Part shown: positions 26,368 through 62,729 of the stretch, in pieces | Layout: each line of letters begins with the position of its first letter | Position numbering within the stretch: the first letter of the stretch is position 1 | Origin: an uncultured Gammaproteobacteria bacterium | Lineage (GTDB): Bacteria; Pseudomonadota; Gammaproteobacteria; CAZDOC01 | Direction: 5' to 3' | Length of the DNA stretch: 64,000 bases | NCBI GenBank assembly: GCA_964506945.1 | Contig: CAZDOC010000002.1 | Location: 42,834 to 106,833, forward strand | Program-made: the position numbers and the translations under genes | Notes under the pieces: generated by a model | Seen by the model: only the letters and a program-made list of their open reading frames with translations | Database searches by the model: none | Told to the model about the DNA's origin: nothing

Positions 26368-26458
26368 ACAGGGCCCCCGGGTCGATCGAGGCGGGCAAGG
26401 CGGCGCGTTAACGGATACACTTTCAGCAGTCATGCGTTCACGGGAAGCGAACCGGCCG

Positions 26459-30001: not shown

Positions 30002-30182
30002 GTCCCGGAAGCGCCCGCGCAGCCCTGACCGCAAGCAAGCTCCCGGCGGGGCATTCCCCAAGTCGGGGATCATCCAGATTCAGTATATATAACAGTCACT
30101 TGTGTTGATGGCGCCGCCTCTCCATCCCCAGTGGGCAGGACGGTGCTCCCGTCCCTGTCCCGCGTGTTCCTGCCTGCGCGAT

Positions 30183-30272
30183 ACTGGAAAAAGATAGAAT
30201 ATTTATTAAAATAGTTATATAAGTGCTACAATTCATTAGTAATATTAAAAAATATCATCATTAGGTATGGAG
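30183..30272 (+). promoter_or_regulatory. Strongly AT-rich island upstream of mshI, a probable promoter, UP-element or nucleoid-protein-binding region for the MSHA secretion operon.
   Basis: aaaaagatagaatatttattaaaatagttatataagtgctacaattcattagtaatattaaaaaatatcatcattagg sits in an otherwise GC-rich genome. It lies about 45-130 bp upstream of the mshI ATG. Confidence 0.4.
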
Positions 30273-32949: not shown

Positions 32950-34719
32950 ATGATGAATGATATCGGCATCGGAACACCGGGGCGCTGGATGTTGCTGGCG
33001 GGATGCGTGCTCTTGAGCACCGGCTGTGACCACGGCCTGACTCGCAAGGCCACCCTGGACACCATCGATCAGGCCGTGGCCGAGGCAGCCGCCACCAACA
33101 GGGAGCAGGAGGCGATACCGCGGGACGTGGCCGATGCCCTGTTGCCGACGATCGAGCTGGACAAGGACAAGACGCCCGTCAGCAAGGACAGGCAGTACTT
33201 CGACATCTCCGTCAACGACGTGCCGGCGCAGCAGTTCTTCATGAGCCTGGTGGATGGCACGGACTACAACATGGTCGTCCATCCCGAGGTGCGGGGGCGG
33301 ATCACCCTGAACCTGAAAAAGGTCACCATTCCGCAGGTGATGGAGGCCGTACGCGATGTCTATGGCTATGAATTCGTGCAGACCCGATACGGTTTCCAGG
33401 TCCTGCCCAGTCGCCTGTCGGCGCGTATCTACCAGATCAATTACCTCAACGTGAAACGTTCCGGCAGTTCCTCTACCTTCGTCAGCTCCGGGGCCCTGAC
33501 CTCGGGCCCGAACGCCCCCCTGACCGGTCAGACCTCGGCTCAGAACTCCTCCACCAACACCCAGGGCACGACCCGCCGCAATGTCGTCGGCACCCAGATC
33601 AGCACCGAGCAGCTGGGGGTCTCGTTCTGGAATGAACTGCGCACCTCCATCTCGGCCATCATCGGCAATGGCGAGGGTCGCAGCGTGGTGGTCAATCCCC
33701 AGTCCGGGGTGGTGGTGGTGCGTGCCATCCCCAACGAGCAGCGCGAGGTGGAGACCTATCTGCGCGCCACCCAGCTGATCGTCGAGCGTCAGGTGATCCT
33801 GGAGGCCAAGATCATCGAAGTGGAACTCAAGGACGGCTACCAGTCCGGCATCAACTGGGCCGCGCTCAAGGGAGAGTTCACCGCCGCCCATGTGGGTGGT
33901 GGTTCGATCCTGGTGAACGAATCCGGGACCAGCGACATCGCCGGGCAGGCCGGCGCCACCCTGCGTCCGGGCGGGACGCCGGCGCTGGACGGTACGCTCA
34001 GCTCGGCCTTTGGCGGGGTCTTCTCCCTGGCCGTGAATGCGAACAATTTCGCCGCCTTCGTGGAACTGCTGAAGACCCAGGGCAATGTCCAGGTGCTGTC
34101 CAGCCCCAGGGTCTCCACGATGAACAACCAGAAGGCCCTGATCAAGGTCGGCTCGGACGAGTTCTTCGTCACCGATGTGTCCACCACCACGGTGACCGGT
34201 ACCAGTACCACGTCGACGCCGAACGTGGAACTGACGCCGTTCTTCTCCGGCATCGCCCTGGACGTGACCCCGCAGATCAGCCAGGACGGCGAGGTCACGC
34301 TCCATATCCATCCGTCGGTCAGCAAGGTGGTGGATCAGCAGAAGAACATCACCGTCGGCGGCATCAGTCAGCAGTTGCCGCTGGCGCGCAGCACGGTGCG
34401 TGAATCCGACAGCATCGTGCGCGCGCGTTCCGGCCAGATCATCGTCATCGGCGGCCTGATGCAGGACCGCACCGATGACCAGGACGCCCAGACCCCGTTG
34501 CTGGGGGACCTGCCGCTGCTCGGGGGCCTGTTCAAGCATCAGAAACAGTCCTCGCAGAAGAGCGAGCTGGTGATCCTGCTGCGGCCGCTGGTGGTCTCGG
34601 GCGCGGACGACTGGACGCGTGAGCTGGCGCAATCGCAACAGCGCCTGGGGGAGATGCGCCAGGTGTTGCAGCGGCGTGACGACGAGTCCGCCCGCTTCAC
34701 GCGCCGGGTGGCCGAATGA
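32950..34719 (+). CDS. mshL: MshL secretin (GspD/PilQ family).
   Basis: Secretin C-domain: NQKALIKVGSDEFFVT...IVIGGLMQDRTDDQDAQTPLLGDLPLLGGLFKHQKQSSQKSELVILLRPLVV. Confidence 0.9.
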   Translation: MMNDIGIGTPGRWMLLAGCVLLSTGCDHGLTRKATLDTIDQAVAEAAATNREQEAIPRDVADALLPTIELDKDKTPVSKDRQYFDISVNDVPAQQFFMSLVDGTDYNMVVHPEVRGRITLNLKKVTIPQVMEAVRDVYGYEFVQTRYGFQVLPSRLSARIYQINYLNVKRSGSSSTFVSSGALTSGPNAPLTGQTSAQNSSTNTQGTTRRNVVGTQISTEQLGVSFWNELRTSISAIIGNGEGRSVVVNPQSGVVVVRAIPNEQREVETYLRATQLIVERQVILEAKIIEVELKDGYQSGINWAALKGEFTAAHVGGGSILVNESGTSDIAGQAGATLRPGGTPALDGTLSSAFGGVFSLAVNANNFAAFVELLKTQGNVQVLSSPRVSTMNNQKALIKVGSDEFFVTDVSTTTVTGTSTTSTPNVELTPFFSGIALDVTPQISQDGEVTLHIHPSVSKVVDQQKNITVGGISQQLPLARSTVRESDSIVRARSGQIIVIGGLMQDRTDDQDAQTPLLGDLPLLGGLFKHQKQSSQKSELVILLRPLVVSGADDWTRELAQSQQRLGEMRQVLQRRDDESARFTRRVAE

Positions 34720-34795: not shown

Positions 34796-35740
34796 ATGTA
34801 CACAAAACACTTCGGTCTGACGGAGATGCCGTTCACGCTGACACCGGACACCAGTTTCTTCATGAACCGTTCCGGTTACCAGGACGCGCTGAATGTACTG
34901 CTGGTGGCCTTGCGCAGCGGTGAGGGCTTCATCAAGGTCACCGGCGAGGTGGGAACCGGCAAGACCCTGCTGTGTCGCAAGCTGCTGAAGACACTGGGCA
35001 CGGAGTACATGACCGTCTATATCCCCAATCCCTATCTGAAACCGGCGACGCTGTTCCTGACCATCGCCGAGGAATTGGGGGTGGCCTGTGAAGCCGGCAT
35101 GGACCAGCATTTCGTGCTCCGCGAGATCACCCGTGCGCTGGTGCGTTTCCATCTCAGGGGACGGCCGGTGGTGATCTGCCTGGACGAGGTCCAGGCCATG
35201 CCGCTGGAGACCCTGGAGACCCTCAGGCTGCTGACCAACCTGGAGACCGAGAAGACCAAGCTGATCCAGGTGGTGCTGTTTGCCCAGCCGGAACTGAATT
35301 TCCTCCTCGAGAGCCCCTCGATCCGCCAGTTGCGCCAGCGCATCACCTTCTCCTACGAGCTGTTGCCACTGAATCGCGCCGGGCTGGCGAGCTATGTGCG
35401 TCATCGCCTGGCGGTGGCCAACTACGACGGTCGAGACCTGTTCAGCCGCAAGGCCCTGGACCTGTTGTACCGGGGCAGTGGCGGGATCCCCCGGCTGGTC
35501 AACATCCTGGCCAACAAGGCCCTGATCTGCGCCTTTGGCCGGGGTGATATCGAGATCCGGGCGCGTCATGTACGCGAGGCCCTGGCCGACAGCAGCGAGG
35601 CGCGCGACTGGAAGACGCCGCGGGGCCATCGTTGGCTGCAGCTGTGGCGCGTGCTGAGCGGCGCCGGCGGCGCCGCGGCGATGGTCGCGCTGTTGTCGCT
35701 GGCCGGGGTCCGTGAGACGCTGGCGGCCCTGTTCAGATGA
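34796..35740 (+). CDS. mshM: MshM (ExeA-like AAA ATPase).
   Basis: Walker A GEVGTGKT. ExeA/MshM-type N-terminus HFGLTEMPFTLTPDTSFF. Confidence 0.85.
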   Translation: MYTKHFGLTEMPFTLTPDTSFFMNRSGYQDALNVLLVALRSGEGFIKVTGEVGTGKTLLCRKLLKTLGTEYMTVYIPNPYLKPATLFLTIAEELGVACEAGMDQHFVLREITRALVRFHLRGRPVVICLDEVQAMPLETLETLRLLTNLETEKTKLIQVVLFAQPELNFLLESPSIRQLRQRITFSYELLPLNRAGLASYVRHRLAVANYDGRDLFSRKALDLLYRGSGGIPRLVNILANKALICAFGRGDIEIRARHVREALADSSEARDWKTPRGHRWLQLWRVLSGAGGAAAMVALLSLAGVRETLAALFR

Positions 35741-36996
35741 GCCTGATCAACAACATGCTGCAGGATCTGGAACACCGCCGCGGCGGCCGGCCCTTGCAGG
35801 GACATCAGATCCTGTCTGGTCTCGACGCCGTGGGCATGGGCGCGCAGCATGAGGGTCACTGGCGGCAGGCCCGGCCGCTGGCGATCATGAGCCTGGGACT
35901 GGCCATGCTGGCGCTGGCATGGCTGGTGATCCAGGGGCGCCCGGGATGGGCCGGCCGCTGGCCCGCGCCCGCGCCGGCAGCACCGGTGACGGAGGAACGC
36001 GCGCCGGCCACCCCGGCCGTCGAAAGACCCGGTCCGCAGGTCGGTCGGCGGGGGCGGACGCAGGCCTTCGGCGAGACCGCCGGTCCGCACCGGGCCGGGG
36101 CCACGCCGGCGGCGCGCACCAGCCAGGTCATGGTGGTGAATGACCCCGGCGTGAGCGTGCCGGTGTGGTTCGGACCGGTCGCGGCGGCGGGCGCCGAAGC
36201 GGCGGCCGTGACCACGCCCCGGCCAGCGCGGGTCATGGGCGAAAACGGCGACGGCGCCCCGGTGTCGGTGCGGGACGCGGCCAGGGCGCCCACGTCACCC
36301 CGGTCCGCCATCGCGGCCACACCCGAAGCTCATGCCACGATCCGCTCACAGGGCGCCAGCGGCGGTGGTGACGCGTCTGCCGATGCGGGCGGCTTCCACC
36401 GTGAGTCCGCCCGCGGGGATGGATCCGCGGTCTCGCCCCTGAGCCGGGCGCGGGCGCGCCTGGCCAGTGGCCAGGTCGCCGCGGCCCTGGCGGGTTTCCG
36501 GGAGGTACTGAGGCAGGCGCCGGACAACACCGATGCCCGCATCGAGCTGGCGGGTGTCCTGGTACGCATGGGCCGTGCCGACGCCGCCCTGCGGGTGCTG
36601 GAAGCGGGTCTGGAAGTGGCTCCCGGGGCCTGGTCGCTGGCACTGTCCGGGGCGCGGATCCTGGTCTCGCACGCCGAGGCCGGGCGGGCGGCGCGCCTGC
36701 TGGAGGCGCATCGGCCGGCGCTGGCGGAGGCGCCGGAATACTATGCCTACATGGCTGGCCTGGCGCAGCGTCAGGGGGATGACGAGCAGGCCATATCACT
36801 CTATCGCATGCTCACCGCCCGGGATGGCGCCCGGGGGGTCTGGTGGATGGGGCTGGCGATCTCGCTCAAGCGCGAGAACCGGCTGCGGGAATCATTGCGG
36901 GCTTTCCAGCGCGCCTATGCGGACACCGGCCTGTCGGACAATCTGCGCCGCTATATCGGTTCGCAGATAGCCGGTCTGCGGCGGGAACGCGGCTGA
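35737..36996 (+). CDS. mshN: MshN (TPR-repeat protein).
   Basis: N-terminal transmembrane segment, Ala/Pro-rich linker, C-terminal TPR repeats. It sits between mshM and mshE. Confidence 0.7.
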   Translation: MSLINNMLQDLEHRRGGRPLQGHQILSGLDAVGMGAQHEGHWRQARPLAIMSLGLAMLALAWLVIQGRPGWAGRWPAPAPAAPVTEERAPATPAVERPGPQVGRRGRTQAFGETAGPHRAGATPAARTSQVMVVNDPGVSVPVWFGPVAAAGAEAAAVTTPRPARVMGENGDGAPVSVRDAARAPTSPRSAIAATPEAHATIRSQGASGGGDASADAGGFHRESARGDGSAVSPLSRARARLASGQVAAALAGFREVLRQAPDNTDARIELAGVLVRMGRADAALRVLEAGLEVAPGAWSLALSGARILVSHAEAGRAARLLEAHRPALAEAPEYYAYMAGLAQRQGDDEQAISLYRMLTARDGARGVWWMGLAISLKRENRLRESLRAFQRAYADTGLSDNLRRYIGSQIAGLRRERG

Positions 36997-38744
36997 TGCC
37001 CTCGCGCAGGAAGATACGCCTCGGCGATCTGCTGGTGGAGAACGGCATGATCACCGCCGCGCAGCTGGAGCAGGCCCTGGCGGATCAGAAGAAATCCGGG
37101 CGCAAGCTGGGTCGCATCCTGATCGAAAATGCCTACATCGCCGAGGACGATTTGCTGAAGTTCCTGTCTCAGCAGCTGAAGGTCCCCTTCATAGACCTGG
37201 TGCATTACCAGTTCGATGCCGAGGTGGTGCGGCAGTTGCCGGAGATCTATGCGCGGCGTTTTCGCGCGGTGGCCCTCAAGCGCCTGGACGACGGCCTGCT
37301 GATCGGGATGTCGGATCCGACCAATATCTTCGCCTACGATGAACTCGGGCGGATCCTGAAACAGGATATCAAGCTCGCGGTGGTGCGCGAGAGCGAGTTG
37401 CTCAAGACCATCGACCTGGTCTATCGCCGCACCGAGGAGATCAGCGATTTCGCCGAGCAGCTGAGTGACGAACTGGGCGAGACGGACATCGATATCGAGG
37501 ATCTGCTGTCCGGGGCCGATGTCGCCGATGCCCCGGTCGTCAAGCTATTGCAGTCGCTGTTCGAAGACGCCTTGCAGGTCGGCGCCTCGGACATCCACCT
37601 GGAACCGGACGAGAACGTGTTGCGCATACGCCAGCGTGTCGATGGCATCCTGCAGGAACACGTGATGGACGAAAAGCGCATCATGCCGGCGCTGGTGTTG
37701 CGCCTGAAATTGATGGCGAGCCTGGATATCTCCGAGAAGCGCCTGCCGCAGGACGGGCGCTTCAGCCTCAAGGTCAAGCAGCACAGCATCGACGTGCGCA
37801 TGTCCACCATGCCCGTGCAGCATGGTGAATCCGTGGTCCTGAGGCTGCTGGATCAGAGCGCCGGGATACTGGATCTGGAACAGCTCGGCATGGCGGAGGC
37901 CCTGCGCCTGCGCTTCGAGGGCATGGTCAGGCGGCCGCATGGCATGGTCCTGGTCACCGGCCCCACGGGTAGCGGCAAGACCACCACGCTGTATAGCACG
38001 CTCAAGATCCTGAACCGGCCCGAGGTCAAGATCATCACCGTCGAGGATCCGGTCGAATACCGCCTGCCGCGAGTCAATCAGGTGCAGGTGAAACCCGATA
38101 TCGACCTGACCTTCGCGCGCGTGCTGCGTTCCTCACTGCGCCAGGATCCGGATATCGTGCTGATCGGCGAGATGCGCGACGAGGAGACGGTGGATATCGG
38201 TCTGCGCGCGGCCATGACCGGACATATGGTGTTGTCCACCCTGCATACGAATGATGCGATCGCCACCGTGAACCGACTGCTGGACATGGGCGCCCCCGGT
38301 TACCTGCTGGCCTCCTCGCTGCATTCCATACTCGCCCAGCGGCTGATCCGGCGTATCTGCGAGAGCTGCAAGATGGCCGGTGAAGCGGACAAGCAGGAAC
38401 GGGCCTGGCTGGCGCGCAACGCCGATGCCGAGTCCATGCGGCAAGACTACTATCGCGGCAGTGGTTGCAGTCATTGCAACAATACCGGTTACCGCGGTCG
38501 TATCGGGGTATATGAACTGCTGGAGATCGACGAAGCCATGGCCCTGGCCCTGAGTCGCAGTGACACCGCGGCATTCGTCGAACATGCCGAGCATGCCAGG
38601 GGCTACCGCCGCCTGGACCTGGTGGCGCTGGATTATGCCCGTGCCGGGGTGACCTCGCTGGAGGAGGTGCTGCGGGTCTCCGCGGACAGTGGTGACGTGA
38701 CCGTGGCCGCCATCCGCCACCGCGCCGAGGGCGCCGGGACCTAG
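36996..38744 (+). CDS. mshE: MshE extension ATPase (GspE family) with an N-terminal c-di-GMP-binding MshEN domain.
   Basis: Two MshEN repeats (RLGDLLVENGMITAAQLEQALADQ and KLGRILIENAYIAEDDLLKFLSQQ). Walker A GPTGSGKTTT. Tetracysteine CESC...CSHC. The ATG overlaps the mshN TGA. Confidence 0.9.
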   Translation: MPSRRKIRLGDLLVENGMITAAQLEQALADQKKSGRKLGRILIENAYIAEDDLLKFLSQQLKVPFIDLVHYQFDAEVVRQLPEIYARRFRAVALKRLDDGLLIGMSDPTNIFAYDELGRILKQDIKLAVVRESELLKTIDLVYRRTEEISDFAEQLSDELGETDIDIEDLLSGADVADAPVVKLLQSLFEDALQVGASDIHLEPDENVLRIRQRVDGILQEHVMDEKRIMPALVLRLKLMASLDISEKRLPQDGRFSLKVKQHSIDVRMSTMPVQHGESVVLRLLDQSAGILDLEQLGMAEALRLRFEGMVRRPHGMVLVTGPTGSGKTTTLYSTLKILNRPEVKIITVEDPVEYRLPRVNQVQVKPDIDLTFARVLRSSLRQDPDIVLIGEMRDEETVDIGLRAAMTGHMVLSTLHTNDAIATVNRLLDMGAPGYLLASSLHSILAQRLIRRICESCKMAGEADKQERAWLARNADAESMRQDYYRGSGCSHCNNTGYRGRIGVYELLEIDEAMALALSRSDTAAFVEHAEHARGYRRLDLVALDYARAGVTSLEEVLRVSADSGDVTVAAIRHRAEGAGT

Positions 38745-38746
38745 TC

Positions 38747-39973
38747 GTGGCGCGTTATCGCTACAGCGGCAGGAAGGGCGACGGCGAGGCGGTCGATGGC
38801 GTGCTGGAGGCGGTCTCCACCGACGCGGTGCTGGTGCAACTGGAGGGCTTCGGCATCATCCCGCTGGAGATCGACCGGGTCGGGGGTGAGGACGACACCG
38901 GCAACGCGCCGGTCAGCCTGTTCAGGAAGCGGCCGGACCTGACCGAACTGATCCTGTTCACCCGGCAGATGTACAGCCTGATGCATGCCGGGGTGCCGAT
39001 AAACCGCGCCATGATCGTCCTGATCCGCTCCAGCCGCAACCCGATCCTGATCGAGGCGCTGAAGGAGATCCACGCCCAGCTCGAATCGGGGCGGGAGCTT
39101 TCCAGCGCGATGTCGCTGTATCCCGGTATCTTTCCCAGTCTTTATGTCAGCATGGTGCGGGTGGGCGAGAACACCGGCCGTCTGGATGAGGCCCTGATGC
39201 GCGTCGCCGGTTATCTGGAGCGGGAAAAGGATACCCGGCAGAAGGTCAAGTCGGCGCTGCGCTACCCCTCGTTCGTGCTCATCGCCATCGCCGCCGCGGT
39301 GACCATATTGAATATCTTCGTGATCCCGGCCTTCAAGACCATCTTCGAGCGCGCGCACACGCAACTGCCGCTGCCGACCCGGATCCTGATCGGTACCTCG
39401 GACTTCTTCGTCGACTACTGGGCCGGGATGCTGGTGGTCGTGGTGCTGGCGGTCATCGGCGCGCGCTGGTACGTCGCCACCGAGCGGGGGCGCTATCGAT
39501 GGGATCGTTACAAGCTGCGCATCCCCATCGCCGGCAACATCATCGAGCGCGCGGTGCTGGGCCGCTTCGCGCGCGCCTTTGCGATGGCGACCTCGGCGGG
39601 CGTGCCCCTGTTGCAGACACTTGCGGTTTTGTCGAAAGCGGTCGATAACGAGTACATCGGTGGACATATAGCGGACATGCGCCACGGCATCGAACGGGGC
39701 GACACCCTGACCCGCACCGCCGTGGCCACCGGCATGTTTTCACCCCTGGTGATCCAGATGCTCAGTATCGGCGAGGAGACCGGGGCGGTGGATGACCTGA
39801 TGGTCGAGGTGGCGGATTTCTATGAACGCGAGGTGGACTACGACGTCAGGAATCTGAGTACCGCGATCGAGCCGATCATGATCACGGTGATCGCGGTGAT
39901 GGTGTTGATCCTGGCCCTGGGTATCTTCCTGCCGATGTGGGACCTGGCCAGCATCAGTTTCCGGCACGGCTAG
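38747..39973 (+). CDS. mshG: MshG platform protein (GspF/PilC family).
   Basis: The 408-aa product has a duplicated GspF-domain architecture with three transmembrane segments and follows mshE. Confidence 0.88.
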   Translation: MARYRYSGRKGDGEAVDGVLEAVSTDAVLVQLEGFGIIPLEIDRVGGEDDTGNAPVSLFRKRPDLTELILFTRQMYSLMHAGVPINRAMIVLIRSSRNPILIEALKEIHAQLESGRELSSAMSLYPGIFPSLYVSMVRVGENTGRLDEALMRVAGYLEREKDTRQKVKSALRYPSFVLIAIAAAVTILNIFVIPAFKTIFERAHTQLPLPTRILIGTSDFFVDYWAGMLVVVVLAVIGARWYVATERGRYRWDRYKLRIPIAGNIIERAVLGRFARAFAMATSAGVPLLQTLAVLSKAVDNEYIGGHIADMRHGIERGDTLTRTAVATGMFSPLVIQMLSIGEETGAVDDLMVEVADFYEREVDYDVRNLSTAIEPIMITVIAVMVLILALGIFLPMWDLASISFRHG

Positions 39974-40137
39974 GAGCCTGTCGGATTTAGGCGATTGTAG
40001 CGAGGGGAAGCCTTTTTGAGTCAGATTTTTTGGTCATTTGAGGAGAATAGTGAGCCTATTTAACGAGAATGAGCGGAAAATCTGGCCAAAAGGGCTTTTC
40101 CGCAGTAGATCTGTCCTAAGTCCGACAGGCTCCTAGG
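39970..40137. repeat. 168-bp low-GC intergenic element bounded by 22-bp inverted repeats (21/22 match). It may be a MITE-like insertion or a structured regulatory element.
   Basis: Left arm CTAGGAGCCTGTCGGATTTAGG (39970-39991). Right arm CCTAAGTCCGACAGGCTCCTAG (40116-40137), its reverse complement except for one T/C. The 124-bp spacer is visibly AT-richer than the flanks and contains an internal 8-bp hairpin GCGGAAAA...TTTTCCGC (40073-40103). Confidence 0.6.
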
Positions 40138-40164
40138 CCGTGGTGAAGTGATCGGGGACGGTAC

Positions 40165-40689
40165 ATGGCGGGTCTGAATCGCAACCTGTCGCGACTGGAA
40201 CTGGCCTTGATGATCATGGTGATCGCCCTGCTGGTCGCGATGGCCATCAACCGGACCTCGGTGTTGTTCGTGGAGGCGGAGCGGCTGTCCGTGGACATGA
40301 CCCTGAACAGCCTGCGCAACGGCATCACCTACTACACGGCCGAGAGGATGATGCTGGGGCAGATGCGGCAACTGGCGCAGCTGGATGGGGCCAATCCGGT
40401 GGGCCTGGTGATCGTGGCGCCCAAGGGCTATCGTGGGGCGATCAACCCGGGCCAGGGCCAGAAGTTCGAGCCGGGGGACTGGTATTTCGACAAGGACCGT
40501 GGCGTGCTGGTGTACCGGGTGGTCAACCCCGAGCGCCTGTGGAGCGAGGACGGGGACAGCAGCAGGCTGGAGTTCAGGCTCAAACTGGATTACAGGGATC
40601 GGAACGGCAACGGCCGGTATGACCCGGGGATCGACAGTATCATCGGCCTCAGGCTCGTGACCCTGCATCCCTACCGCTGGGAGATCTGA
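40165..40689 (+). CDS. MshF-like protein (putative).
   Basis: The 174-aa product has an N-terminal hydrophobic helix (LELALMIMVIALLVAMAI) but no canonical G/FTLIE prepilin motif. It sits between mshG and the major pilin gene, where mshF lies in Vibrio. Confidence 0.45.
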   Translation: MAGLNRNLSRLELALMIMVIALLVAMAINRTSVLFVEAERLSVDMTLNSLRNGITYYTAERMMLGQMRQLAQLDGANPVGLVIVAPKGYRGAINPGQGQKFEPGDWYFDKDRGVLVYRVVNPERLWSEDGDSSRLEFRLKLDYRDRNGNGRYDPGIDSIIGLRLVTLHPYRWEI

Positions 40690-40735
40690 GGCGGTTTCGC
40701 AATCGACAGTGTGACAATACAAGAGGTGCAAGACA

Positions 40736-41181
40736 TGAACGGCAAGCAGCAAGGTTTCACCCTCATAGAACTGGTACTGGTGATCACCATCCTCGGTATC
40801 CTGGCGGCCTTCGCCATCCCGCGTTTCGCCGGCATCGAGACCCAGGCGCGCATCTCGGTGATGCAGGGCGTGGCCGGCTCACTGGAGGCGGCCGCGGCCC
40901 TGGCCCATGCCAAGCAGCTGGCGCAGGGGGTCTCCGCCGGTGGAAATATTTCTATGGAAGGCATCACCATCAATATGGTCAATGGCTATCCCAGTGCCGC
41001 AGACATTGACAAGGCAATACGTACAGGGAGCAATTCCAAAATACTTTCCAATAGTGCGGGAACATTTAATTATAGTGGTTTCCTAAGTTGTTCGGTGCAA
41101 TACACAGAGGCTCCGGCCACCCCGGCCGGCTCACCACCAACAATCATAACGACGAATCTGACAACAGCGAATTGTGAATAA
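40736..41181 (+). CDS. mshA: MSHA major pilin (type IVa prepilin, MshA/MshB-like).
   Basis: Prepilin leader MNGKQQG|FTLIELVLVITILGILAAFAIP with Glu5. C-terminal disulfide loop C...C. The 3' half of the gene is low-GC and the tail is Ser/Thr/Pro/Ala-rich (TEAPATPAGSPPTIITTNLTTANCE). Confidence 0.85.
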
Positions 41182-41201
41182 CAACAACAAATAACACCCA
41201 T

Positions 41202-41228
41202 GAGGCTGCGATTGCAGCCTCTTTTTTA
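41202..41228 (+). terminator. Rho-independent terminator after the major pilin gene.
   Basis: GAGGCTGC-GATT-GCAGCCTC stem-loop followed by TTTTTT, 21 nt past the pilin TAA. Confidence 0.75.
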
Positions 41229-41298
41229 TACGCCTGCGCCTGGGTGTGCCGGTGCAAGGCGATCCGGCGGTTTTCCGGCCGTGAAGGAGACCGGATAC

Positions 41299-43239
41299 TT
41301 GGCATCGACACGCACATCCCCGGCCCTGGCCCTGCCGGCCGTGGCCCTGGCCCTGGCGCTGTGGTACCAGGGGTTCACCCTGCTGCCGGTATGCGCGGTG
41401 CTGGCCGTGCTGCTGCTGGGCCTGCTGGTCGGCCCTGGCCGGCGGCACCGGCGCTGGACCTGGCCACGGCCCGATGCCCTTGTCATCAGCCTGTCCCTGT
41501 TGCTCGTCTGGAGCGCCTGGATCACCCTGAGCGGTCCCGGCCGCCTGCTGGCCCAGTATGGCCTGCTGGTCTGCGGTGTGTTCGCCAGCGCGCTGCTCTG
41601 CGCCCTGCTGGCCTCCCGGCAGCGGGCCTGGTGGCCGCTGATGGTGCCGGTGTCGCTCGTCGTGCTGGCCGAGGCCCTCTACGGCGGCTGGCAGTTCCTC
41701 GCTGGCCAGGGTCCGCCACGGGGGCTGTTCGTGCAGCCGAACACCCATGCCGGCTGGTTGCTGCTGTTCAACCTGCCCCTGACGGCCCTGGCCGCGTGGC
41801 TGCGGCGGTATCGCAGGCGCAGCTGGCCGTGGGTGCTGGCCGGGCTGGCCCTGCTGGACCTGAATATCGCCGCCTCGCTGAGCCGTGGCGTGGCCCTGGC
41901 GCTGTCGGCGGGGCTGCTGGTCCTTGGCGTGAGTCTTCCGCCAGGCTGTCGACGCGGCCTGTTGATCCCCGTGGTGCTGGTGATCAGCGCCTACGGTCTG
42001 GTCGATGTCCTGGACGCCGGCCGGGTGGCCGGGCGCATGGACAGCGGCCTGGCGAGCGTGGGCCGCCTGCTGCTGGATAGCCAGGAGGATGGATCCCCGG
42101 CGACGGGGCAGGGGGATTCCATCCGCGCGCGCGTGCTGATCTGGCGGGGGGCCTGGCGTATGTGGCGGGAGACCCCCTGGCAGGGCTGGGGCCTGTACCG
42201 CTTCCGGCTGATCTATCCCCGCTTCCAGTCCGATGCGGATCAGAGTGCCGGGCAATATGCCCACAACGAGCTGCTGCAATTGTTACTGGAGATCGGTCTA
42301 CCGGGCCTGTTGCTGGTGCTGTTGAGCATGGTCCTGGTTGCCAGGCGGGGCTGGAAGCGTCTGCATGGCCCCGGCATGGACGAGGCCCGGCGTTGTGAGA
42401 TCGCCGGTCTGCTGGCGGCGATGGCGGCGATCTCCGTACACAGCCTGCTGTCCTATGATTTCCATATCCTGCCGGTGCTGCTGGTCGTGGGGCTGATCAC
42501 GGGGCGTTACCTGGACCGGGTCAGCATGGAGGCATCGGTTTCTGAGCGCATGACCGTGACGGGGGGGCGGCCCGGCCGCCGGCCGGCCCGGATCCTGTTG
42601 CTGGCGATCCTGCTGGCGCTGGCGCTACCCGCCGGCATGGCCTGGTATATGGGCCAGGCTCGGGCGGCCCTGGCCCGGGGCGATCTGGCCGCGGCCGAGC
42701 AGGCCCTGGGGCGGGCGGCCATGCTCGATGATACCGACGAGATCGCCCATGCGCGCGCCTTGACCTATATCGAGGCACTGAAGGCCCTGCCCGGGCGGGA
42801 TGAGAGACGCCCCAGGCTGTTCCAGTGGGCCATGGACAGCCTGGATGCGGCCGCGCGCATGAACCCGGAACTGGCCGCGGTGCCCTGCGCCCGCGGACTG
42901 TTGTTCGCCAGGGCCCCGGGGCTGGCCGGGCGGGATGCCTACCGGCGTGCGGAGGATGCATTTCGTCAGGGCCTGCGCCTGGCACCGAGACAGTATCTGT
43001 GCCGCCTGCACTATGCCCGCCTGCTGTTGCGGCTCGGACGCAAGCCACAAGCGCGTACCCTGCTGGAGGCCGGCCTGCCCGCCGGTCTGCCGGATGCTGC
43101 CGGGATCATCCCCTATGTGCAGCTGTTGATCCGCCTGCGCCGTGACATGGGGCAAGCCGCCGCCGCGGAGCGCCTGGCCCGGCGCCTGCTGAACTTGCGC
43201 GGGCACTGGCGTAACATAGGCGCCGGTACGCGGATATGA
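41299..43239 (+). CDS. O-antigen ligase family (Wzy_C) protein with a C-terminal TPR region: a putative pilin O-oligosaccharyltransferase (PglL/TfpO-like).
   Basis: Ten or more transmembrane helices. Wzy_C signatures SLSRGVALAL and the periplasmic loop YAHNELLQLLLEIGLPGLL. The C-terminal roughly 200 aa are Ala/Arg/Leu-rich and TPR-like. It lies immediately downstream of the pilin gene, the same arrangement as P. aeruginosa pilA-tfpO. The start is set at the TTG at 41299, which follows a GAAGGAGA Shine-Dalgarno sequence. The track's ATG at 41200 lies inside the terminator. Confidence 0.7.
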   Translation: MASTRTSPALALPAVALALALWYQGFTLLPVCAVLAVLLLGLLVGPGRRHRRWTWPRPDALVISLSLLLVWSAWITLSGPGRLLAQYGLLVCGVFASALLCALLASRQRAWWPLMVPVSLVVLAEALYGGWQFLAGQGPPRGLFVQPNTHAGWLLLFNLPLTALAAWLRRYRRRSWPWVLAGLALLDLNIAASLSRGVALALSAGLLVLGVSLPPGCRRGLLIPVVLVISAYGLVDVLDAGRVAGRMDSGLASVGRLLLDSQEDGSPATGQGDSIRARVLIWRGAWRMWRETPWQGWGLYRFRLIYPRFQSDADQSAGQYAHNELLQLLLEIGLPGLLLVLLSMVLVARRGWKRLHGPGMDEARRCEIAGLLAAMAAISVHSLLSYDFHILPVLLVVGLITGRYLDRVSMEASVSERMTVTGGRPGRRPARILLLAILLALALPAGMAWYMGQARAALARGDLAAAEQALGRAAMLDDTDEIAHARALTYIEALKALPGRDERRPRLFQWAMDSLDAAARMNPELAAVPCARGLLFARAPGLAGRDAYRRAEDAFRQGLRLAPRQYLCRLHYARLLLRLGRKPQARTLLEAGLPAGLPDAAGIIPYVQLLIRLRRDMGQAAAAERLARRLLNLRGHWRNIGAGTRI

Positions 43240-43262
43240 GATGGACGAAGCGATTGCATACG

Positions 43263-43751
43263 ATGACTCGATCACGGATCCCGGGCTTTACCCTGGTGGA
43301 ACTGGTCAGCGTGATCGTGGTGCTCGGCATCATGGCCGCGTTCATCGCCCCGCGCTTTTTCCAGCGTGATGCCTTCGAGGAGATGGGCTTCGCCGCGCAG
43401 GCCCTCTCGGCCATCCATTATGCGCAGAAACTGGCCCTGGCCTCCGGTTGCGACATGCGGGTGGCGATCTCCTCCGGCGGCCTGCGGGTGGATCGTTTCG
43501 GCAGCGCCGACTGCCGCGCCAATCCGGGCGCGGCGCTGATCGGCATGAAGCGCTTTGGGGGCGGTTCCCTGGCGCTGCCGCTGCCGGACGGGATCAGCGT
43601 CACCACCGTCAGTTTCTACTTCGACAAGATCGGTCGTCCACATGATGCCGCCGGCAGCTTCGGCGCCCTGCTGGGTGCGCCCCTGGACATCGCCGTCGGC
43701 AGCCACGACCTGAGGGTGGAGCCCGAAACGGGCTACACGCACAGCCTGTGA
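43263..43751 (+). CDS. mshC: MshC-like minor pilin.
   Basis: Prepilin motif MTRSRIPG|FTLVELVSVIVVLGIMAAF. The track ORF starts in-frame upstream at 43236. Confidence 0.7.
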   Translation: MTRSRIPGFTLVELVSVIVVLGIMAAFIAPRFFQRDAFEEMGFAAQALSAIHYAQKLALASGCDMRVAISSGGLRVDRFGSADCRANPGAALIGMKRFGGGSLALPLPDGISVTTVSFYFDKIGRPHDAAGSFGALLGAPLDIAVGSHDLRVEPETGYTHSL

Positions 43752-44272
43752 GGAGATGCCGCCGCGAGCATGGCCTGACCCTGATCGAGCTGGTCATCTC
43801 CCTGGTCATCCTGGCCATCGCCTCGGTGGCGATCCTGCGGGTGCTGTCGGACGCCAACAGACGCAGCGCCGATCCCATGATCCAGCAGCAGGCCAGCGCC
43901 ATCGCCCAGGCCTATCTGGAGGAGGTGTTGCTCAAGCCCTATTGTGACCCGGACCTCAGCACCGACTGTGCGAGCACCTGCGCGGTCGCCAACATCTGCG
44001 CCACACCCGCCTGCAGCAGTCCCGAGGCCGGGCGCACGGCCTTCGACGAGGTCTGCGACTACGACGGCCTCGTCGACAGCGGCGCGCGTAACCAGCTCGA
44101 CCAGGCCATCCCCGCGCTGGCGGATTACACCGTCACGGTGCGGGTCGACGACAGCGGGGTCGATATCAACGGCCTCTCGGCCGATGCGGGCCAGGCCCTG
44201 CGCATCACCGTGAGCGTGGACCACCCGGCCATGGCGCCCATCAGCCTGTCGGCCTACCGGACGAATTTCTGA
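43748..44272 (+). CDS. mshD: MshD-like minor pilin.
   Basis: Prepilin motif HG|LTLIELVISLVILAIASVAIL, with a Cys-rich C-terminal region. Confidence 0.7.
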   Translation: MRRCRREHGLTLIELVISLVILAIASVAILRVLSDANRRSADPMIQQQASAIAQAYLEEVLLKPYCDPDLSTDCASTCAVANICATPACSSPEAGRTAFDEVCDYDGLVDSGARNQLDQAIPALADYTVTVRVDDSGVDINGLSADAGQALRITVSVDHPAMAPISLSAYRTNF

Positions 44273-45117
44273 TGCGCGATGCCACGGGCTTCACCCTGAT
44301 AGAGATGGTCTCGGTGATCGTGATCACCGGCATCCTGGCGACCGTGGTGGGCATGAACATCTCGCGGCCGATCCAGGGCTATCTGGATACCGCGCGGCGG
44401 GCCGAACTGGTGGACAAGGCGGAGACCGCACTCAACCGCATGACCCGCGAGATCCGCCTGGCCCTGCCGAACAGCATCCGTGTCTCAGGTGGCTCGATGG
44501 AGTTCCTGCGCAGCCTGAGCGGTGGCCGTTATCGCGCCCGCCCGGATCCCGGCGGCGGCAGTGACGAACTCGATTTTGCCGCCGATGCCGATAGCTTCGA
44601 TGTCCTCGGTGGCATGCCCAGTCTGCTGAACATCATCGCCGGCGCCGGCGGACGCGCCGATTGCCTGAGCGGCGTCAGCGATTGCCTGGTGATCTTCAAC
44701 ACCGGCCAGCCCGGTGCGGATGCCTATCGGGGCGACAATATCGCCGGTATCTCCCTGGTCGACAAGGGTCCGCCGGTGGTCCGGCTCAGCTTCGACAACT
44801 CCGATGTTCCCGGCTGGCACTTCCCGTTCGCCTCTCCGCGCCAGCGTTTCTATGTCGTCGATACCCCGGTCAGCTTCGTCTGCGACCTGGCGAGCGGTCG
44901 CATCACCCGGCATGCACAATACCCGATCAGCGCGGTACAAAACCCGGCCCCGGCCGGTAACGGCAGCCTGCTGGTGGACAGGGTCAGCGCCTGTTCCTTC
45001 AGCTACAGTCCCGGCAGCGCGACCCGCGACGGTCTGGTGACCCTGGCGCTGAGCATTACCGACAGTGGCGAGAGCGTGCACCTGCTGCAGCAGGTGCACA
45101 TACCCAACCAGCCATGA
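44272..45117 (+). CDS. mshO: MshO-like minor pilin.
   Basis: Prepilin motif MRDATG|FTLIEMVSVIVITGILATVV. The 281-aa product is in the size range expected of MshO. Confidence 0.7.
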   Translation: MRDATGFTLIEMVSVIVITGILATVVGMNISRPIQGYLDTARRAELVDKAETALNRMTREIRLALPNSIRVSGGSMEFLRSLSGGRYRARPDPGGGSDELDFAADADSFDVLGGMPSLLNIIAGAGGRADCLSGVSDCLVIFNTGQPGADAYRGDNIAGISLVDKGPPVVRLSFDNSDVPGWHFPFASPRQRFYVVDTPVSFVCDLASGRITRHAQYPISAVQNPAPAGNGSLLVDRVSACSFSYSPGSATRDGLVTLALSITDSGESVHLLQQVHIPNQP

Positions 45118-45542
45118 AGCGTGATGCCGACATTGCCGGCTTCTCCCTGGTGACAGCGCTGTTCCTGCTGGTGATCCTGGCCGCGCTGGGGGTGTTCGTG
45201 ATCACCATAGGCAGCACCCAGCAGGCCACCTCGACCCTGTCCATCCTGGATGCCAGGGCCATGGCCGCCGCCGAGAGCGGCCTGGAGTGGGCCGTGCATC
45301 GGGCCAGGAACCAGCCGGCGGACCTGGGCTGTGGCGGCGCCGGGGCCACCTTCAATCTGCAGGGTCCCGGGCTGGATGGTTTCAGTGTCGGCATCAGCTG
45401 CGTGGTCACGCCCAATATCGTCGAGGGCGCCGCGCCGCCGTACTCGATGTATGCCCTGACCGTGACCGCCAGCCGCGGCGTGACGGGCAGCCCCGACTAT
45501 GTCCGGCGTATCCTGCAGGCCACGGTCACGGACGCGCCCTAG
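45114..45542 (+). CDS. mshP: MshP-like (PilX-like) minor pilin.
   Basis: MKRDADIAG|FSLVTALFLLVILAALGVFVI, the last gene of the cluster. Confidence 0.65.
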   Translation: MKRDADIAGFSLVTALFLLVILAALGVFVITIGSTQQATSTLSILDARAMAAAESGLEWAVHRARNQPADLGCGGAGATFNLQGPGLDGFSVGISCVVTPNIVEGAAPPYSMYALTVTASRGVTGSPDYVRRILQATVTDAP

Positions 45543-48506: not shown

Positions 48507-48678
48507 TGCTCAGGGGCAGGGCGGGGACAGATGGGTAAATCTTCCTGTCCGGGGCGGGAATACCCTCCTTCGTTGACACGGTTTGCCGGTGATATAAAGG
48601 CATTCTCCATGTGGTATCGGGATCCCGGCCCGGATGGACCGGGGTATGGGTGTTGTCAACGCGTGCCGGGCAGGGATG

Positions 48679-50802
48679 ATGGAACGCTCTCAGGTGGCAG
48701 ACAGCGGTTTGTGGGCACTGTGCCTGGTGGCGCGGTATCATGGGGTGGCGGTCGACCCGGCTGCGCTGGCGCAGCGTTTCCGTACTGCTGAGGGCCTCGA
48801 CGAGGCGGCGATCCTGCGTGCGGGGCGCAGCCTGGGGCTGAAATGCCGGGCCTGCACCCTGTCGGAAGCCCGCATGAGGAAGGCCCCATTGCCGGTGATC
48901 GCCGCTCTGCGTGGCGGCGGTTTTGTACTGATCCTGAGACTCGCCGGGGATGACCTGCTGGTTCAGCGGGGGGAGGATGTGGCCCCCGCGCGCCTGGCCT
49001 GGGTGGATTTTGGTCGTGAATGGAACGGGCGACTGATCCTGATCACCCGGCGTCACGGGCTGGAAACCGCGGCGCGACGCTTCGGCTGGCGCTGGTTTGT
49101 GCCCTTCATCCTCAAGTACCGGGCCTATCTCCTGGAGGTGTTGCTGGCCTCCTTCATGCTGCAGCTTTTCGCCCTGGTCACGCCGTTGTTCTTTCAGGTG
49201 GTGATCGACAAGGTATTGGTGCACAAGGGTCTGACCACGCTGGACGTACTCGCCGGCGGCCTGCTGGTGGTGTCGCTGTTCGATGCGCTGCTGGCTGGCT
49301 TGCGCGGCTATGTCTTCAGCCACACCAGCAACCGCATCGACGTGGCCCTGGGCGCGGCCTTGTTCCGTCACCTGCTGCGCTTGCCGATCGCCTATTTCGA
49401 GCATCGGCGGGTCGGCGACACGGTCGCCCGGGTGCGCGAACTGGAGACCCTGCGCCAGTTCCTCACCGGTTCCTCCCTGACCTTGCTGGTGGATGTGAGC
49501 TTTACCCTGGTGTTCTTCGCGGTGATGTATCTGTACAGCCCCCGGCTGACGCTCGTCGTGGCCGGGGTCCTGCCGGTGTATGTCTTGCTGGCGGTGTCGG
49601 TGACGCCGGCGTTGCGCGCGCGCCTGAATGAGAAATTCGATCGCGGCGCGGATTCCCAGGCCTTCCTGGTGGAGACCGTCGCCGGGATCGAGACCCTCAA
49701 GGCCAGCGCGGTGGAGGCCGGTGCCGGACAACGCTGGGAGGAACGCCTGGCGGCCTATGTCGCGGCCGGGTTCCGGGCCGGTAACCTGGCCAATATCGCG
49801 GGCCAGTGCGCGCAGTTGATCAACAAGCTGATGACCCTGCTGATCCTCTGGCTGGGGGCGCGCCTGGCCATCGATGGCGCGATCACGGTGGGTCAGCTGG
49901 TGGCCTTCAATATGCTCGCCGGACGGGTGGCCGGGCCGATCCTGCGCCTGTCGCAGTTATGGCAGGACCTTCAGCAGGCCGGCATCTCCCTGGCCCGGCT
50001 GGGCGATATCCTCGACGCCGCGCCCGAGCCCGGTTTCCGTCCCGGTCATATCGCCCTGACCGAGGCGCCGGGCGCGGTGGTCTTCGAGCGGGTCGTGTTC
50101 CGTTATCGCAGCGATGGGCCCGAGGTTCTGCGGGGTATCGATCTGCGGGTGGCCCAGGGGGAGGTGATCGGTATCGTCGGGCGGTCCGGGTCGGGCAAGA
50201 GCACACTGGCGAAACTGATCCAGGGGCTCCATGTCCCGTGCAGCGGCCGGGTGCTGATCAACGGCGTGGACCTGGCCCAGCTCGACAGCAGCTGGCTGCG
50301 CAGCCGCCTGGGCGTGGTGCTGCAGGACAGCCGGCTGTTCAATCGCACGGTACGCGAGAATATCGCCCTGGCCGATCCCGGCCTGCCGATGGCGCGGGTG
50401 ATCCAGGCCGCGCGCATGGCCGGGGCGCACGATTTCATCCTCGATCTGGCGCAGGGCTACGACACGGTCATCGGCGAATATGGCGCCGCTCTCTCCGGGG
50501 GGCAGCGGCAGCGGATCGCCATCGCCAGGGCCTTGATCACGGATCCCTCGATCCTGATCTTCGATGAGGCCAGCAGCGCCCTGGACTATGAGTCGGAATA
50601 TGCCCTGCAGCGGAACATGCGGTATATCTGCAAGGGTCGCACGGTGTTCCTGATCGCCCATCGCCTGTCCACGCTGCGCCATGCCGATCGCATCATCGTG
50701 CTGGACCAGGGCCGGGTGGTGGAGCAGGGCGATCACTCGGACCTGCTGGCCCGGGCCGGGTATTACGCGCGCTTGCACCGGCACCAGCTGGGCATGGCAT
50801 GA
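48679..50802 (+). CDS. Type I secretion system ABC transporter (HlyB family) with an N-terminal C39-like domain, a transmembrane domain and an ABC ATPase.
   Basis: N-terminus ADSGLWALCLVARYHGVAVDP parallels the HlyB C39-like domain ([20 protein letters not shown]). Six transmembrane helices. Walker A GRSGSGKST, ABC signature LSGGQRQRIAIARAL, Walker B ILIFDEASSALD. Start set at MMERSQ; the track ORF starts at 48634. Confidence 0.9.
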   Translation: MERSQVADSGLWALCLVARYHGVAVDPAALAQRFRTAEGLDEAAILRAGRSLGLKCRACTLSEARMRKAPLPVIAALRGGGFVLILRLAGDDLLVQRGEDVAPARLAWVDFGREWNGRLILITRRHGLETAARRFGWRWFVPFILKYRAYLLEVLLASFMLQLFALVTPLFFQVVIDKVLVHKGLTTLDVLAGGLLVVSLFDALLAGLRGYVFSHTSNRIDVALGAALFRHLLRLPIAYFEHRRVGDTVARVRELETLRQFLTGSSLTLLVDVSFTLVFFAVMYLYSPRLTLVVAGVLPVYVLLAVSVTPALRARLNEKFDRGADSQAFLVETVAGIETLKASAVEAGAGQRWEERLAAYVAAGFRAGNLANIAGQCAQLINKLMTLLILWLGARLAIDGAITVGQLVAFNMLAGRVAGPILRLSQLWQDLQQAGISLARLGDILDAAPEPGFRPGHIALTEAPGAVVFERVVFRYRSDGPEVLRGIDLRVAQGEVIGIVGRSGSGKSTLAKLIQGLHVPCSGRVLINGVDLAQLDSSWLRSRLGVVLQDSRLFNRTVRENIALADPGLPMARVIQAARMAGAHDFILDLAQGYDTVIGEYGAALSGGQRQRIAIARALITDPSILIFDEASSALDYESEYALQRNMRYICKGRTVFLIAHRLSTLRHADRIIVLDQGRVVEQGDHSDLLARAGYYARLHRHQLGMA

Positions 50803-62061: not shown

Positions 62062-62565
62062 TCACAGATTCTGGCGCTGGTGTTTCTCCAGCTTCTTGCG
62101 GATGCGGCGTTGCTTCAGTGGGGACAGATAGTCCACGAACAGTTTGCCATCCAGGTGGTCGATCTCGTGTTGTATGCATACCGCCAGGAGACCTTCGACC
62201 TGCATTTCAAACACCTCACCCTCCAGGTTCAGGGCGCGGAAACGGATGTGCTCGGCGCGCTGCACGGTTTCGTAGATACCCGGTACCGACAGGCAGCCCT
62301 CCTCCATCTCCTCGCTGCCCTCGCTGGACAGGATCCGGGGGTTGATCAGGCACAGCGGACTTTCCTTGTTCTCCGAGACATCCACCACCAGCAGGCGTTT
62401 GTGGATGTTGACCTGGGTTGCCGCCAGACCGATCCCCGGGGCGGCGTACATGGTCTCCAGCATGTCCGCGCCGAGTTGGCGGATGCTCTCATCGACCGTT
62501 TCCACCGGGGTGGCCTTGTTGCGCAGCCGTGGGTCGGGATAGTGCAGTATTTCCAGGATCGCCAT
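62062..62565 (-). CDS. def: Peptide deformylase.
   Basis: Start at [15 protein letters not shown]. Motifs [17 protein letters not shown] and QHEIDHLDG. The track ORF extends 25 codons upstream. Confidence 0.92.
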
Positions 62566-62608
62566 ACGGAACGGCTCGTCTCGCAAAAAAATCTGTTTAT
62601 CTAAGGTA

Positions 62609-62636
62609 CTGATAATAACGCAATTCCGGCAGTCAA
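62609..62636 (-). promoter_or_regulatory. Candidate sigma-70 promoter for def-fmt-rsmB.
   Basis: On the - strand, TTGACT (complement of 62636-62631), a 16-nt spacer, then TATCAG (62614-62609), about 40 nt upstream of the def ATG. The -10 element is only a partial match. Confidence 0.3.
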
Positions 62637-62642
62637 CCAATG

Positions 62643-62692: not shown

Positions 62693-62729
62693 CTAAACTA
62701 CGTTAAACAGTTGTCCTAAGGACTATGAT

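Follow-up and report, generated by a model that had tools for sequence, protein, structure and literature searches.

A compositionally foreign head segment in an MshA-type pilin gene, probably imported by recombination, beside a gene for a Wzy_C+TPR protein

How does a pilin gene of 148 codons come to consist of two parts that differ sharply in base composition and codon usage? The gene that raises this question lies at 40735..41181 (+) of a 64-kb stretch of DNA (the window, by which we mean the whole stretch that was analyzed) and encodes an MshA-type major prepilin of 148 amino acids. Its ATG occupies 40735-40737, 8 nt 3′ of a Shine-Dalgarno-like AAGAGG read from the sequence at 40721..40726 (+), and its TAA stop codon occupies 41179-41181; a first-pass annotation of this DNA had the end right and set the start one base too late, at 40736. 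The short leader, MNGKQQG, ends in Gly and is followed by FTLIELV, with cleavage before F8, Phe at +1 and Glu at +5 (E12) as in the N-terminal methylation motif, and the protein matches both Pfam N_methyl (E = 4.6e-9) and TIGR02532 (E = 2e-8). A protein search with the pilin yielded 1615 homologues, aligned almost end to end at ∼50% identity, many of them named "MSHA pilin protein MshA" by JGI. In a 28-sequence alignment of the family, G7-F31, Y85, P86, C119, Y123, P135, and C147 are near-invariant, and the profile of this alignment matches the Shewanella oneidensis MshA pilus subunit (PDB 9lab_B) with E = 4.4e-24. An AlphaFold2 model of the pilin (mean predicted local distance difference test score, pLDDT, 88.9) has a helix over residues 10-64 followed by a beta-sheet head with strands between residues 72 and 140, and 9lab_B was the sole significant PDB match to this model in Foldseek (E = 3.5e-4, probability 1.00). 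We conclude that the product is the MshA-type major subunit of a type IVa pilus of the MSHA class. The first-pass annotation had likewise called it a major pilin, and the leader and G/FTLIE motif, the predicted fold, the match to Shewanella MshA, the surrounding msh cluster, and a strong terminator all bear this out.

In composition, the 5′ segment of the gene (codons 1-68, 40735..40938, +), from which the leader and the alpha-1 helix are translated, does not stand out from the genome. Its GC content is 0.667, compared with 0.654 for the window overall, and its GC contents at first, second, and third codon positions (GC1, GC2, and GC3) are 0.69, 0.44, and 0.87. For codons 69-148 the GC content is 0.463, and GC1, GC2, and GC3 are 0.41, 0.55, and about 0.42-0.43. 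By maximum likelihood, third-position composition switches after codon 68 (nt 40939; Fisher p = 2e-8), a contrast that was matched in none of 5000 permutations. The lowest-GC segment spans 40944-41230 (GC 0.44), and equally AT-rich 232-nt windows make up only 0.3% of the 64 kb, the rest of them being intergenic. We thus delimit an AT-rich cassette, a putative recombinational import, that comprises codons 69-148, the stop codon, and ∼16 nt of 3′ untranslated region (40939..41197, +) and codes for the alpha-beta loop as well as the beta-sheet and disulfide loop. Since the compositional break coincides with the end of the predicted alpha-1 helix, the atypical segment corresponds to the entire globular, exposed head.

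Codon usage changes at the same place. Across 78-codon windows of 44 putative genes in the window, GC3 averages 0.838 (sd 0.054, minimum 0.64). An index resembling the codon adaptation index (CAI), with 32 window genes as reference, is 0.70 for the 5′ part of the pilin gene, against a reference mean of 0.705, and 0.30 for the 3′ part, which lies below the minimum of 0.326 among 1221 reference windows (80-codon stretches). Within the cassette, ACA accounts for 6 of 12 Thr codons, ATA and ATT together for 5 of 8 Ile codons, and AAT for all 8 Asn codons; the corresponding figures for the genome are 4%, 9%, and 34%. The first-pass description of an N-terminal helix region as GC-rich as the genome and of AT-richness from about position 40950 was accurate, with the break now placed at 40939, and the fall in GC3 and in the CAI-like index rules out a uniform composition. 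The three AT-rich strings quoted in that description are all present, at 40942, 41032, and 41181; the third begins at the last base of the stop codon and so belongs to the 3′ untranslated region and not to the coding sequence.

A head rich in Asn, Thr, Ser, and Ile might by itself lower the GC content, with codon choice and history unchanged. Amino acid composition does contribute, as seen in the fall of GC1 from 0.69 to 0.41, but GC2 rises from 0.44 to 0.55, third positions fall the most (0.87 to 0.43), and the CAI-like index, a measure taken within synonymous families, drops to 0.30. Where the window pilin and its relative L082 have the same residue, G/C-ending codons number 20 of 48 in the former and 33 of 48 in the latter, which indicates that the shift toward AT is synonymous and goes beyond the amino acid content of the head. 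We consider amino acid composition refuted as the sole cause and give that account practically no credence.

The break is also unusual for the pilin family. We drew 138 pilin-like genes from 80 GTDB loci and from close relatives and calculated the difference between 5′ and 3′ GC3, which has a mean of 0.05 in high-GC loci and otherwise reaches at most 0.26; the window pilin has a difference of 0.43. When 3′-part GC3 was regressed on flanking GC (107 genes, r = 0.89), the value predicted at 65.4% GC was 0.74, and the observed value of 0.43 deviates from it by z = −3.1 and would suit a genome of ∼49% GC. A low-GC 3′ half as a general property of MshA genes was rejected on the basis of the mean difference in high-GC loci, and expression-driven codon bias was rejected since the 5′ half of the same mRNA has normal usage. 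We noted one other pilin with a comparable pattern. On a 68% GC contig (L092, 3310-3822, −), an unrelated msh-cluster pilin gene convergent to a Wzy_C gene falls to a GC3 of ∼0.4 after the first ∼70 codons of the called open reading frame (ORF), ∼28 codons past GFTLIEL, among neighbors whose GC3 is 0.83-0.95, and may represent another low-GC pilin head that arose independently.

We then asked how the two parts of the gene relate to those of its closest relatives. Four related alleles are available with their contigs (L082, L083, L085/L086, and L087) and are 70-76% identical to the window pilin in amino acid sequence. At the nucleotide level, identity to these alleles is 0.83-0.92 over 40760-40939, with L083, the more distant one, at 0.75-0.83, and falls to 0.48-0.67 over 40940-41179. 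Identity is regained at the terminator and in the downstream Wzy_C+TPR gene, with similarity resuming at CCATGAGGCTGC, from 41198. Synonymous differences per synonymous site (pS) follow the same course. In the 5′ half of the pilin gene, pS between the window and its relatives is 0.33-0.37 (0.59 for L083), and in the flanking genes (mshG, mshF, the Wzy_C+TPR gene, and four minor pilin genes) it is 0.34-0.45 in nine of ten comparisons, the tenth being mshF against L082 at 0.60. In the 3′ half of the pilin gene it is saturated at 0.76-0.89. The relationships differ as well: L083 is the clear outlier in the 5′ half (identity 0.76, versus 0.86-0.88 for the other relatives), and in the 3′ half the window pilin is equidistant from all four (0.57-0.61). 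Taken together, the differing composition and divergence of the two halves suggest that the head segment came from outside the sampled group and that the 5′ half, the terminator, and the neighboring genes are native.

The first-pass annotation had suspected a mosaic C terminus of a "horizontally exchanged or diversifying" kind. The comparison with the four relatives places a break in identity and pS at ∼40939, and exchange fits the finding that composition, codon usage, synonymous divergence, and nucleotide identity all break there and recover past the stop codon. No sign of diversifying selection emerged, with pairwise dN/dS (the ratio of nonsynonymous to synonymous divergence) of 0.1-0.3 in the 3′ half among the relatives, a comparison of five alleles, which are too few for site models.

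Horizontal exchange of the head domain is the best-supported reading and in our judgment probably the correct one. We favor, with moderate confidence, an overall explanation in which a head cassette was replaced by homologous recombination within a native msh pilin gene. The first 204 nt, encoding the leader and the alpha-1 helix that forms the conserved filament core, would be native DNA, and the remaining ∼260 nt, encoding the whole surface-exposed globular head and extending to just before the terminator, would be the imported cassette. We infer that the donor was an allele of the same pilin clade in a genome of roughly 45-50% GC, with crossovers in the two conserved blocks that bracket the cassette, namely the alpha-1 coding segment and the region of the stop codon and terminator. 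The import would be evolutionarily recent, as the cassette has yet to drift toward host composition. A swap of this kind would alter the exposed surface of the pilus and leave its assembly intact. Pilin head swaps are commonly ascribed to pressure from pilus-binding phages, grazers, or receptors, and one of these may have been the selective cause here.

Several findings weigh against an import. All four relatives show a drop in GC3 from 5′ to 3′ of their own (0.06-0.19), and among themselves their 3′ pS is raised as well (0.43-0.63, versus 0.22-0.34 for the 5′ half, in pairs of L082, L085, and L087), so that the signal may stem in part from earlier exchange of alleles throughout the clade or from the nature of head-coding DNA. 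Pairwise dN/dS remains below 1 in the head. Searches for a donor produced none: HMMER with the 80-residue head against 1.84 billion representative proteins returned only seven matches, of which the pilins were 42-52% identical and two were long proteins matched in 7 and 11 separate stretches, probably spuriously; the best heads among 120 homologues were those of the same clade at ∼62%, with no closer head; and a scan of metagenome contigs with the pilin added only one known relative and two N-terminal-only matches, again with no closer head.

A rival account has the head half diverging in place under relaxed or altered constraints and without an import: its amino acids may have turned over fast, mutation may have favored AT, codons may have been weakly selected, or rare codons or a weakly structured mRNA may have been selected to slow translation of the head. 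The milder GC3 drop and raised 3′ pS of the relatives and the fruitless donor searches speak for it. The head of the window pilin is still collinear with, and nearest to, those of its own clade, and the unrelated L092 pilin beside a Wzy_C gene also drops to a GC3 of ∼0.4 among neighbors at 0.83-0.95. Divergence in place would, however, have to produce a change that is abrupt at one codon and large (0.87 to 0.42), a cassette below every coding window in the 64 kb, and a saturated 3′ pS next to flanks at 0.34-0.45, and we know of no mechanism that would keep a mutational bias toward AT within 260 bp. The drop is also missing from most high-GC genomes that have this pilin family (mean 0.05). We therefore regard this account as improbable, though it deserves to be taken seriously.

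The sequence comes from metagenome-derived contigs, and its junctions are known from the assembly alone, which is a further point to set against the import. Reads of a co-occurring lower-GC relative could have been joined across the conserved alpha-1 and terminator sequences to yield a mosaic present in no single cell. The contig derives from JGI sample 3300023440, related pilin alleles occur in the nearby-numbered sample 3300023444, and the cassette is short (∼260 bp) with conserved sequence on both sides. Such an artifact would nevertheless require two switches inside 260 bp, and three sources (NCBI, JGI, and Logan) list this very protein, with 30-kb and 160-kb contigs carrying it. In the sequence that brackets the cassette, the longest identical runs shared with any known relative measure only 13-23 nt, a length similar to or below that of common assembly k-mers, and the 5′ half is identical to no known relative, which gives no hint of a shared path in the assembly graph. 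We rate an artifact as very unlikely and retain replacement of the head by recombination as the explanation to carry forward.

The native flanks of the cassette include an intrinsic terminator, identified by a consensus scan at 41202..41229 (+), in which an 8-bp GC-rich hairpin (41202-41221) is followed by a T-tract. Its RNA fold has a free energy of −15.9 kcal/mol (z = −5.6 relative to shuffled sequences), and the hairpin is kept in L082, L085, and L087. A strong terminator 3′ of the pilin gene fits a highly expressed major subunit with attenuated read-through; it would allow high pilin output and low read-through into the Wzy_C+TPR and minor pilin genes. We found no sigma-70-like promoter near the pilin gene, no match to Rfam families, and no tRNA gene.

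Pfam matches of the neighboring genes and synteny with L082, L085, and L091 place the pilin gene within a complete msh-type cluster. By Pfam, the cluster contains a secretin (Secretin_N_2, 32950-34719), an AAA protein (34796-35740), a TPR protein (35737-36996), the MshE ATPase (T2SSE and MshEN, 36996-38744, +), and the MshG platform protein (T2SSF, 38747-39973, +), followed by a gene in the mshF position (40165-40689, +), assigned by its place in the cluster. The order of the upstream assembly genes (36996..40689) is identical in L082, L091, and L092. Downstream, four minor-pilin-like genes in the mshC/D/O/P positions (43236..45542, +) have N_methyl or PilX_N matches and are syntenic in L085, with 82-89% amino acid identity and pS of 0.34-0.40.

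Other features were noted in and around the cluster. An mshQ-like gene (26342-30001, with DUF6701 and Laminin_G_3) lies upstream of the assembly genes and not after mshP. After it, and upstream of the region that leads to the msh secretin and assembly genes, an extremely AT-rich stretch at 30180-30270 (100-nt windows down to 25% GC) probably has a promoter or regulatory role. A 167-bp low-GC segment (39970-40136), present once in the window, lies between the stop codon of mshG and the gene in the mshF position and is bounded by 22-nt inverted repeats, CTAGGAGCCTGTCGGATTTAGG and CCTAAGTCCGACAGGCTCCTAG. It looks like an insertion resembling a miniature inverted-repeat transposable element, as the corresponding gap in relatives is only 21-29 bp. 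At 48634-50802, ∼3 kb past the pilus cluster, lies a gene for an ABC transporter whose N-terminal C39 peptidase domain gives it the layout of an exporter of bacteriocins or peptides, and another low-GC stretch (62469-62876, ≤50% GC in 232-nt windows) spans the gap between divergent ORFs at 62062-62640 (−) and 62730-63932 (+).

Is the head of this pilin a substrate for the enzyme encoded next to it? The first-pass annotation had pointed to the region between the two Cys residues as unusually rich in Thr, Ser, Pro, and Ala and so as a source of O-glycosylation acceptor sites for the adjacent ligase. This D-region, CSVQYTEAPATPAGSPPTIITTNLTTANC, extends from Cys119 to Cys147 (41089..41175, +) as a presumed disulfide loop of 29 residues whose Cys residues are invariant in 28 homologues. 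Its content of Ser, Thr, Pro, and Ala (59%) is family-typical, however, with 51 ± 9% in 120 homologues and a rank of 23, and its Ser and Thr content (31%, 2 Ser and 7 Thr) ranks 17th against 24 ± 8%. The sole outstanding property of the loop is its length, which ranks third of 120. The motif C-x-V-x-Y-T...P-P-T-I...C is a hallmark of the whole family, and a loop of this composition occurs in ∼80 loci that have no adjacent Wzy_C gene, so the composition is not tied to the ligase. A pilin that is only 51% identical overall (P0028) has the same APATPAGSPP loop motif (CEVTYADAPATPAGSPPVITVAVTGC) as the window allele, and the closest clade members have a shorter QPAAAG-type loop; the shared motif may reflect convergence or a small mosaic patch.

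The adjacent gene (41299..43239, +) encodes a Wzy_C (O-antigen-ligase-like) membrane protein of 646 amino acids with a C-terminal TPR region of roughly 150-190 residues, a candidate pilin O-oligosaccharyltransferase. Its TTG start at 41299 was taken from the gene call of the source contig and from homologue alignment, and its Pfam matches are Wzy_C (E = 2.8e-20) and TPR_19 (E = 2.3e-5). With a GC3 of 0.84 and a pS to L085 of 0.38, this gene is native and not imported. Homologues are rare, a word-indexed protein search yielding six matches. Those at 68, 39, and 29% identity adjoin MshA-type pilins in msh clusters, the first of them on the contig of L085, and a Wzy_C protein in a metagenome-assembled genome (MAG) of Methylophilaceae (L047) also lies beside an MshA-type pilin in an msh cluster. 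Wzy_C proteins are therefore found beside MshA-type pilins in four divergent lineages (the window clade, L091, L092, and L047), once in convergent orientation. Searches of the 80 GTDB loci by tblastn and with a custom ligase hidden Markov model gave no Wzy_C neighbor beyond that of L047 (1 of 80).

In five homologues of the Wzy_C+TPR protein at 26-69% identity, R196, R278, H322-N323, E331, and H381 are invariant. R196, R278, and H322 are spaced similarly to the two Arg residues and one His that are conserved in the periplasmic loops of WaaL (R215/R288/H338) and PglL (R224/R298/H349) (PMC3643930), to which they may correspond. The protein has no sequence match to any solved structure, and an AlphaFold2 model built with five sequences has a poor membrane core (pLDDT 63), and Foldseek returned only TPR proteins for the model, which does not tell a ligase from an O-oligosaccharyltransferase. 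There is precedent for reading function from adjacency: of 31 PglL homologues, 21 adjoin pilin genes (PMC3643930). Glycosylation of an MSHA pilin has so far only been speculated on, in Vibrio cholerae, which has pglL upstream of its msh operon (PMC6901666). Given that Wzy_C recurs beside MshA-type pilins in four lineages and that the Arg/Arg/His residues are invariant, it is plausible from sequence that the adjacent enzyme O-glycosylates the pilin. The protein would probably act in the periplasm and draw on an undecaprenyl-linked glycan. Ser and Thr residues between Cys119 and Cys147, such as Ser133 within APATPAGSPPT, are candidate acceptors, the analogy being with PglS, which uses a sequon in ComP that has Cys residues on both sides.

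A number of observations speak against glycosylation. In addition to the ∼80 loci with a similar loop and no Wzy_C neighbor, PglL_A was not found in the enzyme at E ≤ 0.01 in a Pfam scan, which does not place it in the PglL class, as the PglL general O-oligosaccharyltransferases carry the motifs PglL_A and PglL_B flanking Wzy_C (PMC3643930). The NCBIfam TfpM model (NF058641) scores 15.4 bits against a cutoff of 600, and the pilin ends in ...TTANCE, its last residue being Glu and not Ser or Thr; its relatives terminate in CE or CQ. Lastly, the cryo-electron microscopy paper on S. oneidensis MshA mentions glycan density only on flagellin (PMC13334000).

We raise one broader idea tentatively and with low confidence. 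The msh-embedded Wzy_C+TPR proteins of the window clade, L091, L092, and L047 might constitute an undescribed class of pilin-dedicated O-oligosaccharyltransferases, in which a periplasmic TPR region recognizes the MshA head and an internal site, such as one in the loop, is glycosylated, with heads being exchanged between lineages and the resident enzyme kept. If so, head and glycan would form a two-layer variable surface against pilus-specific phages. Other genes were observed in the same place relative to MshA-like pilins. In Noviherbaspirillum and in a Burkholderiales MAG (L008, 7384-10266; L045, 7394-10243), ∼950-residue proteins with TPR, GT41 (O-GlcNAc-transferase-like), and methyltransferase regions are encoded just 3′ of the pilin gene, and in a Rhodocyclaceae MAG (L030, 6855-8816) the corresponding protein has TPR repeats and a weak, sub-threshold GT9 match. 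Differing TPR-linked glycosyltransferases thus recur beside this pilin family.

Other type IV pili are well known to combine a conserved pilin helix with a head that is exchangeable and foreign in composition and with a neighboring glycosylation gene, and our results do not overturn current understanding. They put numbers on a case of modular pilin evolution beyond the pathogens usually taken as models, in which the core half and the assembly genes are vertically inherited and the exposed head appears to have been swapped as a cassette between two conserved recombination anchors. For annotation, a sharp GC3 break within one short gene can flag an intragenic import. The most novel lead is the msh-embedded Wzy_C+TPR protein, a recurrent but rare MSHA neighbor that would make glycosylation of MSHA pilins directly testable.

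How does this locus compare with known systems? With the MshA systems of Vibrio and Shewanella (PDB 9lab, S. oneidensis MR-1), the window shares the leader and G/FTLIELV, a long alpha-1 helix, a head built on a beta-sheet, and a Cys-Cys loop at the C terminus that carries C-x-V-x-Y-T, as well as a cluster in which an MshEN-domain ATPase and MshG occur together with a secretin and with minor pilins at the C/D/O/P positions. Unlike the solved MshA, the window pilin is shorter (148 versus 171 amino acids), and the two are ∼30% identical. The cluster departs from known msh loci in that its pilin gene is single and mshB is absent, a Wzy_C+TPR gene separates the major pilin gene from the minor ones, and an mshQ-like gene lies upstream of the assembly genes.

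Two known pairings of a Wzy_C enzyme with a pilin invite comparison. Like PglS of Acinetobacter, which acts on ComP, the window enzyme belongs to the Wzy_C family and is encoded beside a single, presumably cognate pilin, here one with a 29-residue, Cys-flanked loop rich in Ser, Thr, Pro, and Ala. The acceptor Ser of ComP lies in a Ser/Ala/Thr-rich loop of 19-23 residues between two Cys residues (PMC8457361, PMC9829042), but that loop is at residues 71-93 and not in a C-terminal D-region. The enzymes show no detectable relationship beyond Wzy_C, the match to Wzy_C_2 being weak and below threshold (E = 0.0046), and the window enzyme has a C-terminal TPR region. TfpO (PilO) and TfpM are likewise encoded directly 3′ of the major pilin gene, in the same orientation, and share the Wzy_C core (PMC9829042). 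They are enzymes of 420-460 residues that modify a C-terminal Ser or Thr of the pilin (PMC9829042), whereas the window enzyme has 646 residues including the TPR region and its pilin ends in Cys-Glu; these differences, together with the TfpM score, rule out a pair of the TfpO/TfpM type.

The pilA groups I-V of Pseudomonas aeruginosa (tfpO, tfpW, and tfpX/Y/Z) resemble the window in that a variable pilin with a conserved helix and a divergent head co-varies with an adjacent accessory or glycosylation gene. Pilin alleles of P. aeruginosa are of lower GC than the genome. They co-vary with tfpO or tfpW, and pilus-specific phages are believed to drive the spread of alleles from strain to strain (PMC12035536). 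In the window, by comparison, only the head part of the pilin gene is atypical, the enzyme gene is native, no tRNA gene is nearby, and the pilus is of the MSHA and not the PilA type. Antigenic variation at pilE/pilS of Neisseria resembles the proposed event in that a conserved 5′ segment is kept and a variable 3′ head cassette is replaced by recombination. No silent pilin cassette copy was found in the 64-kb window, and the foreign codon usage of the cassette suggests an external donor here rather than an intragenomic one as in Neisseria.

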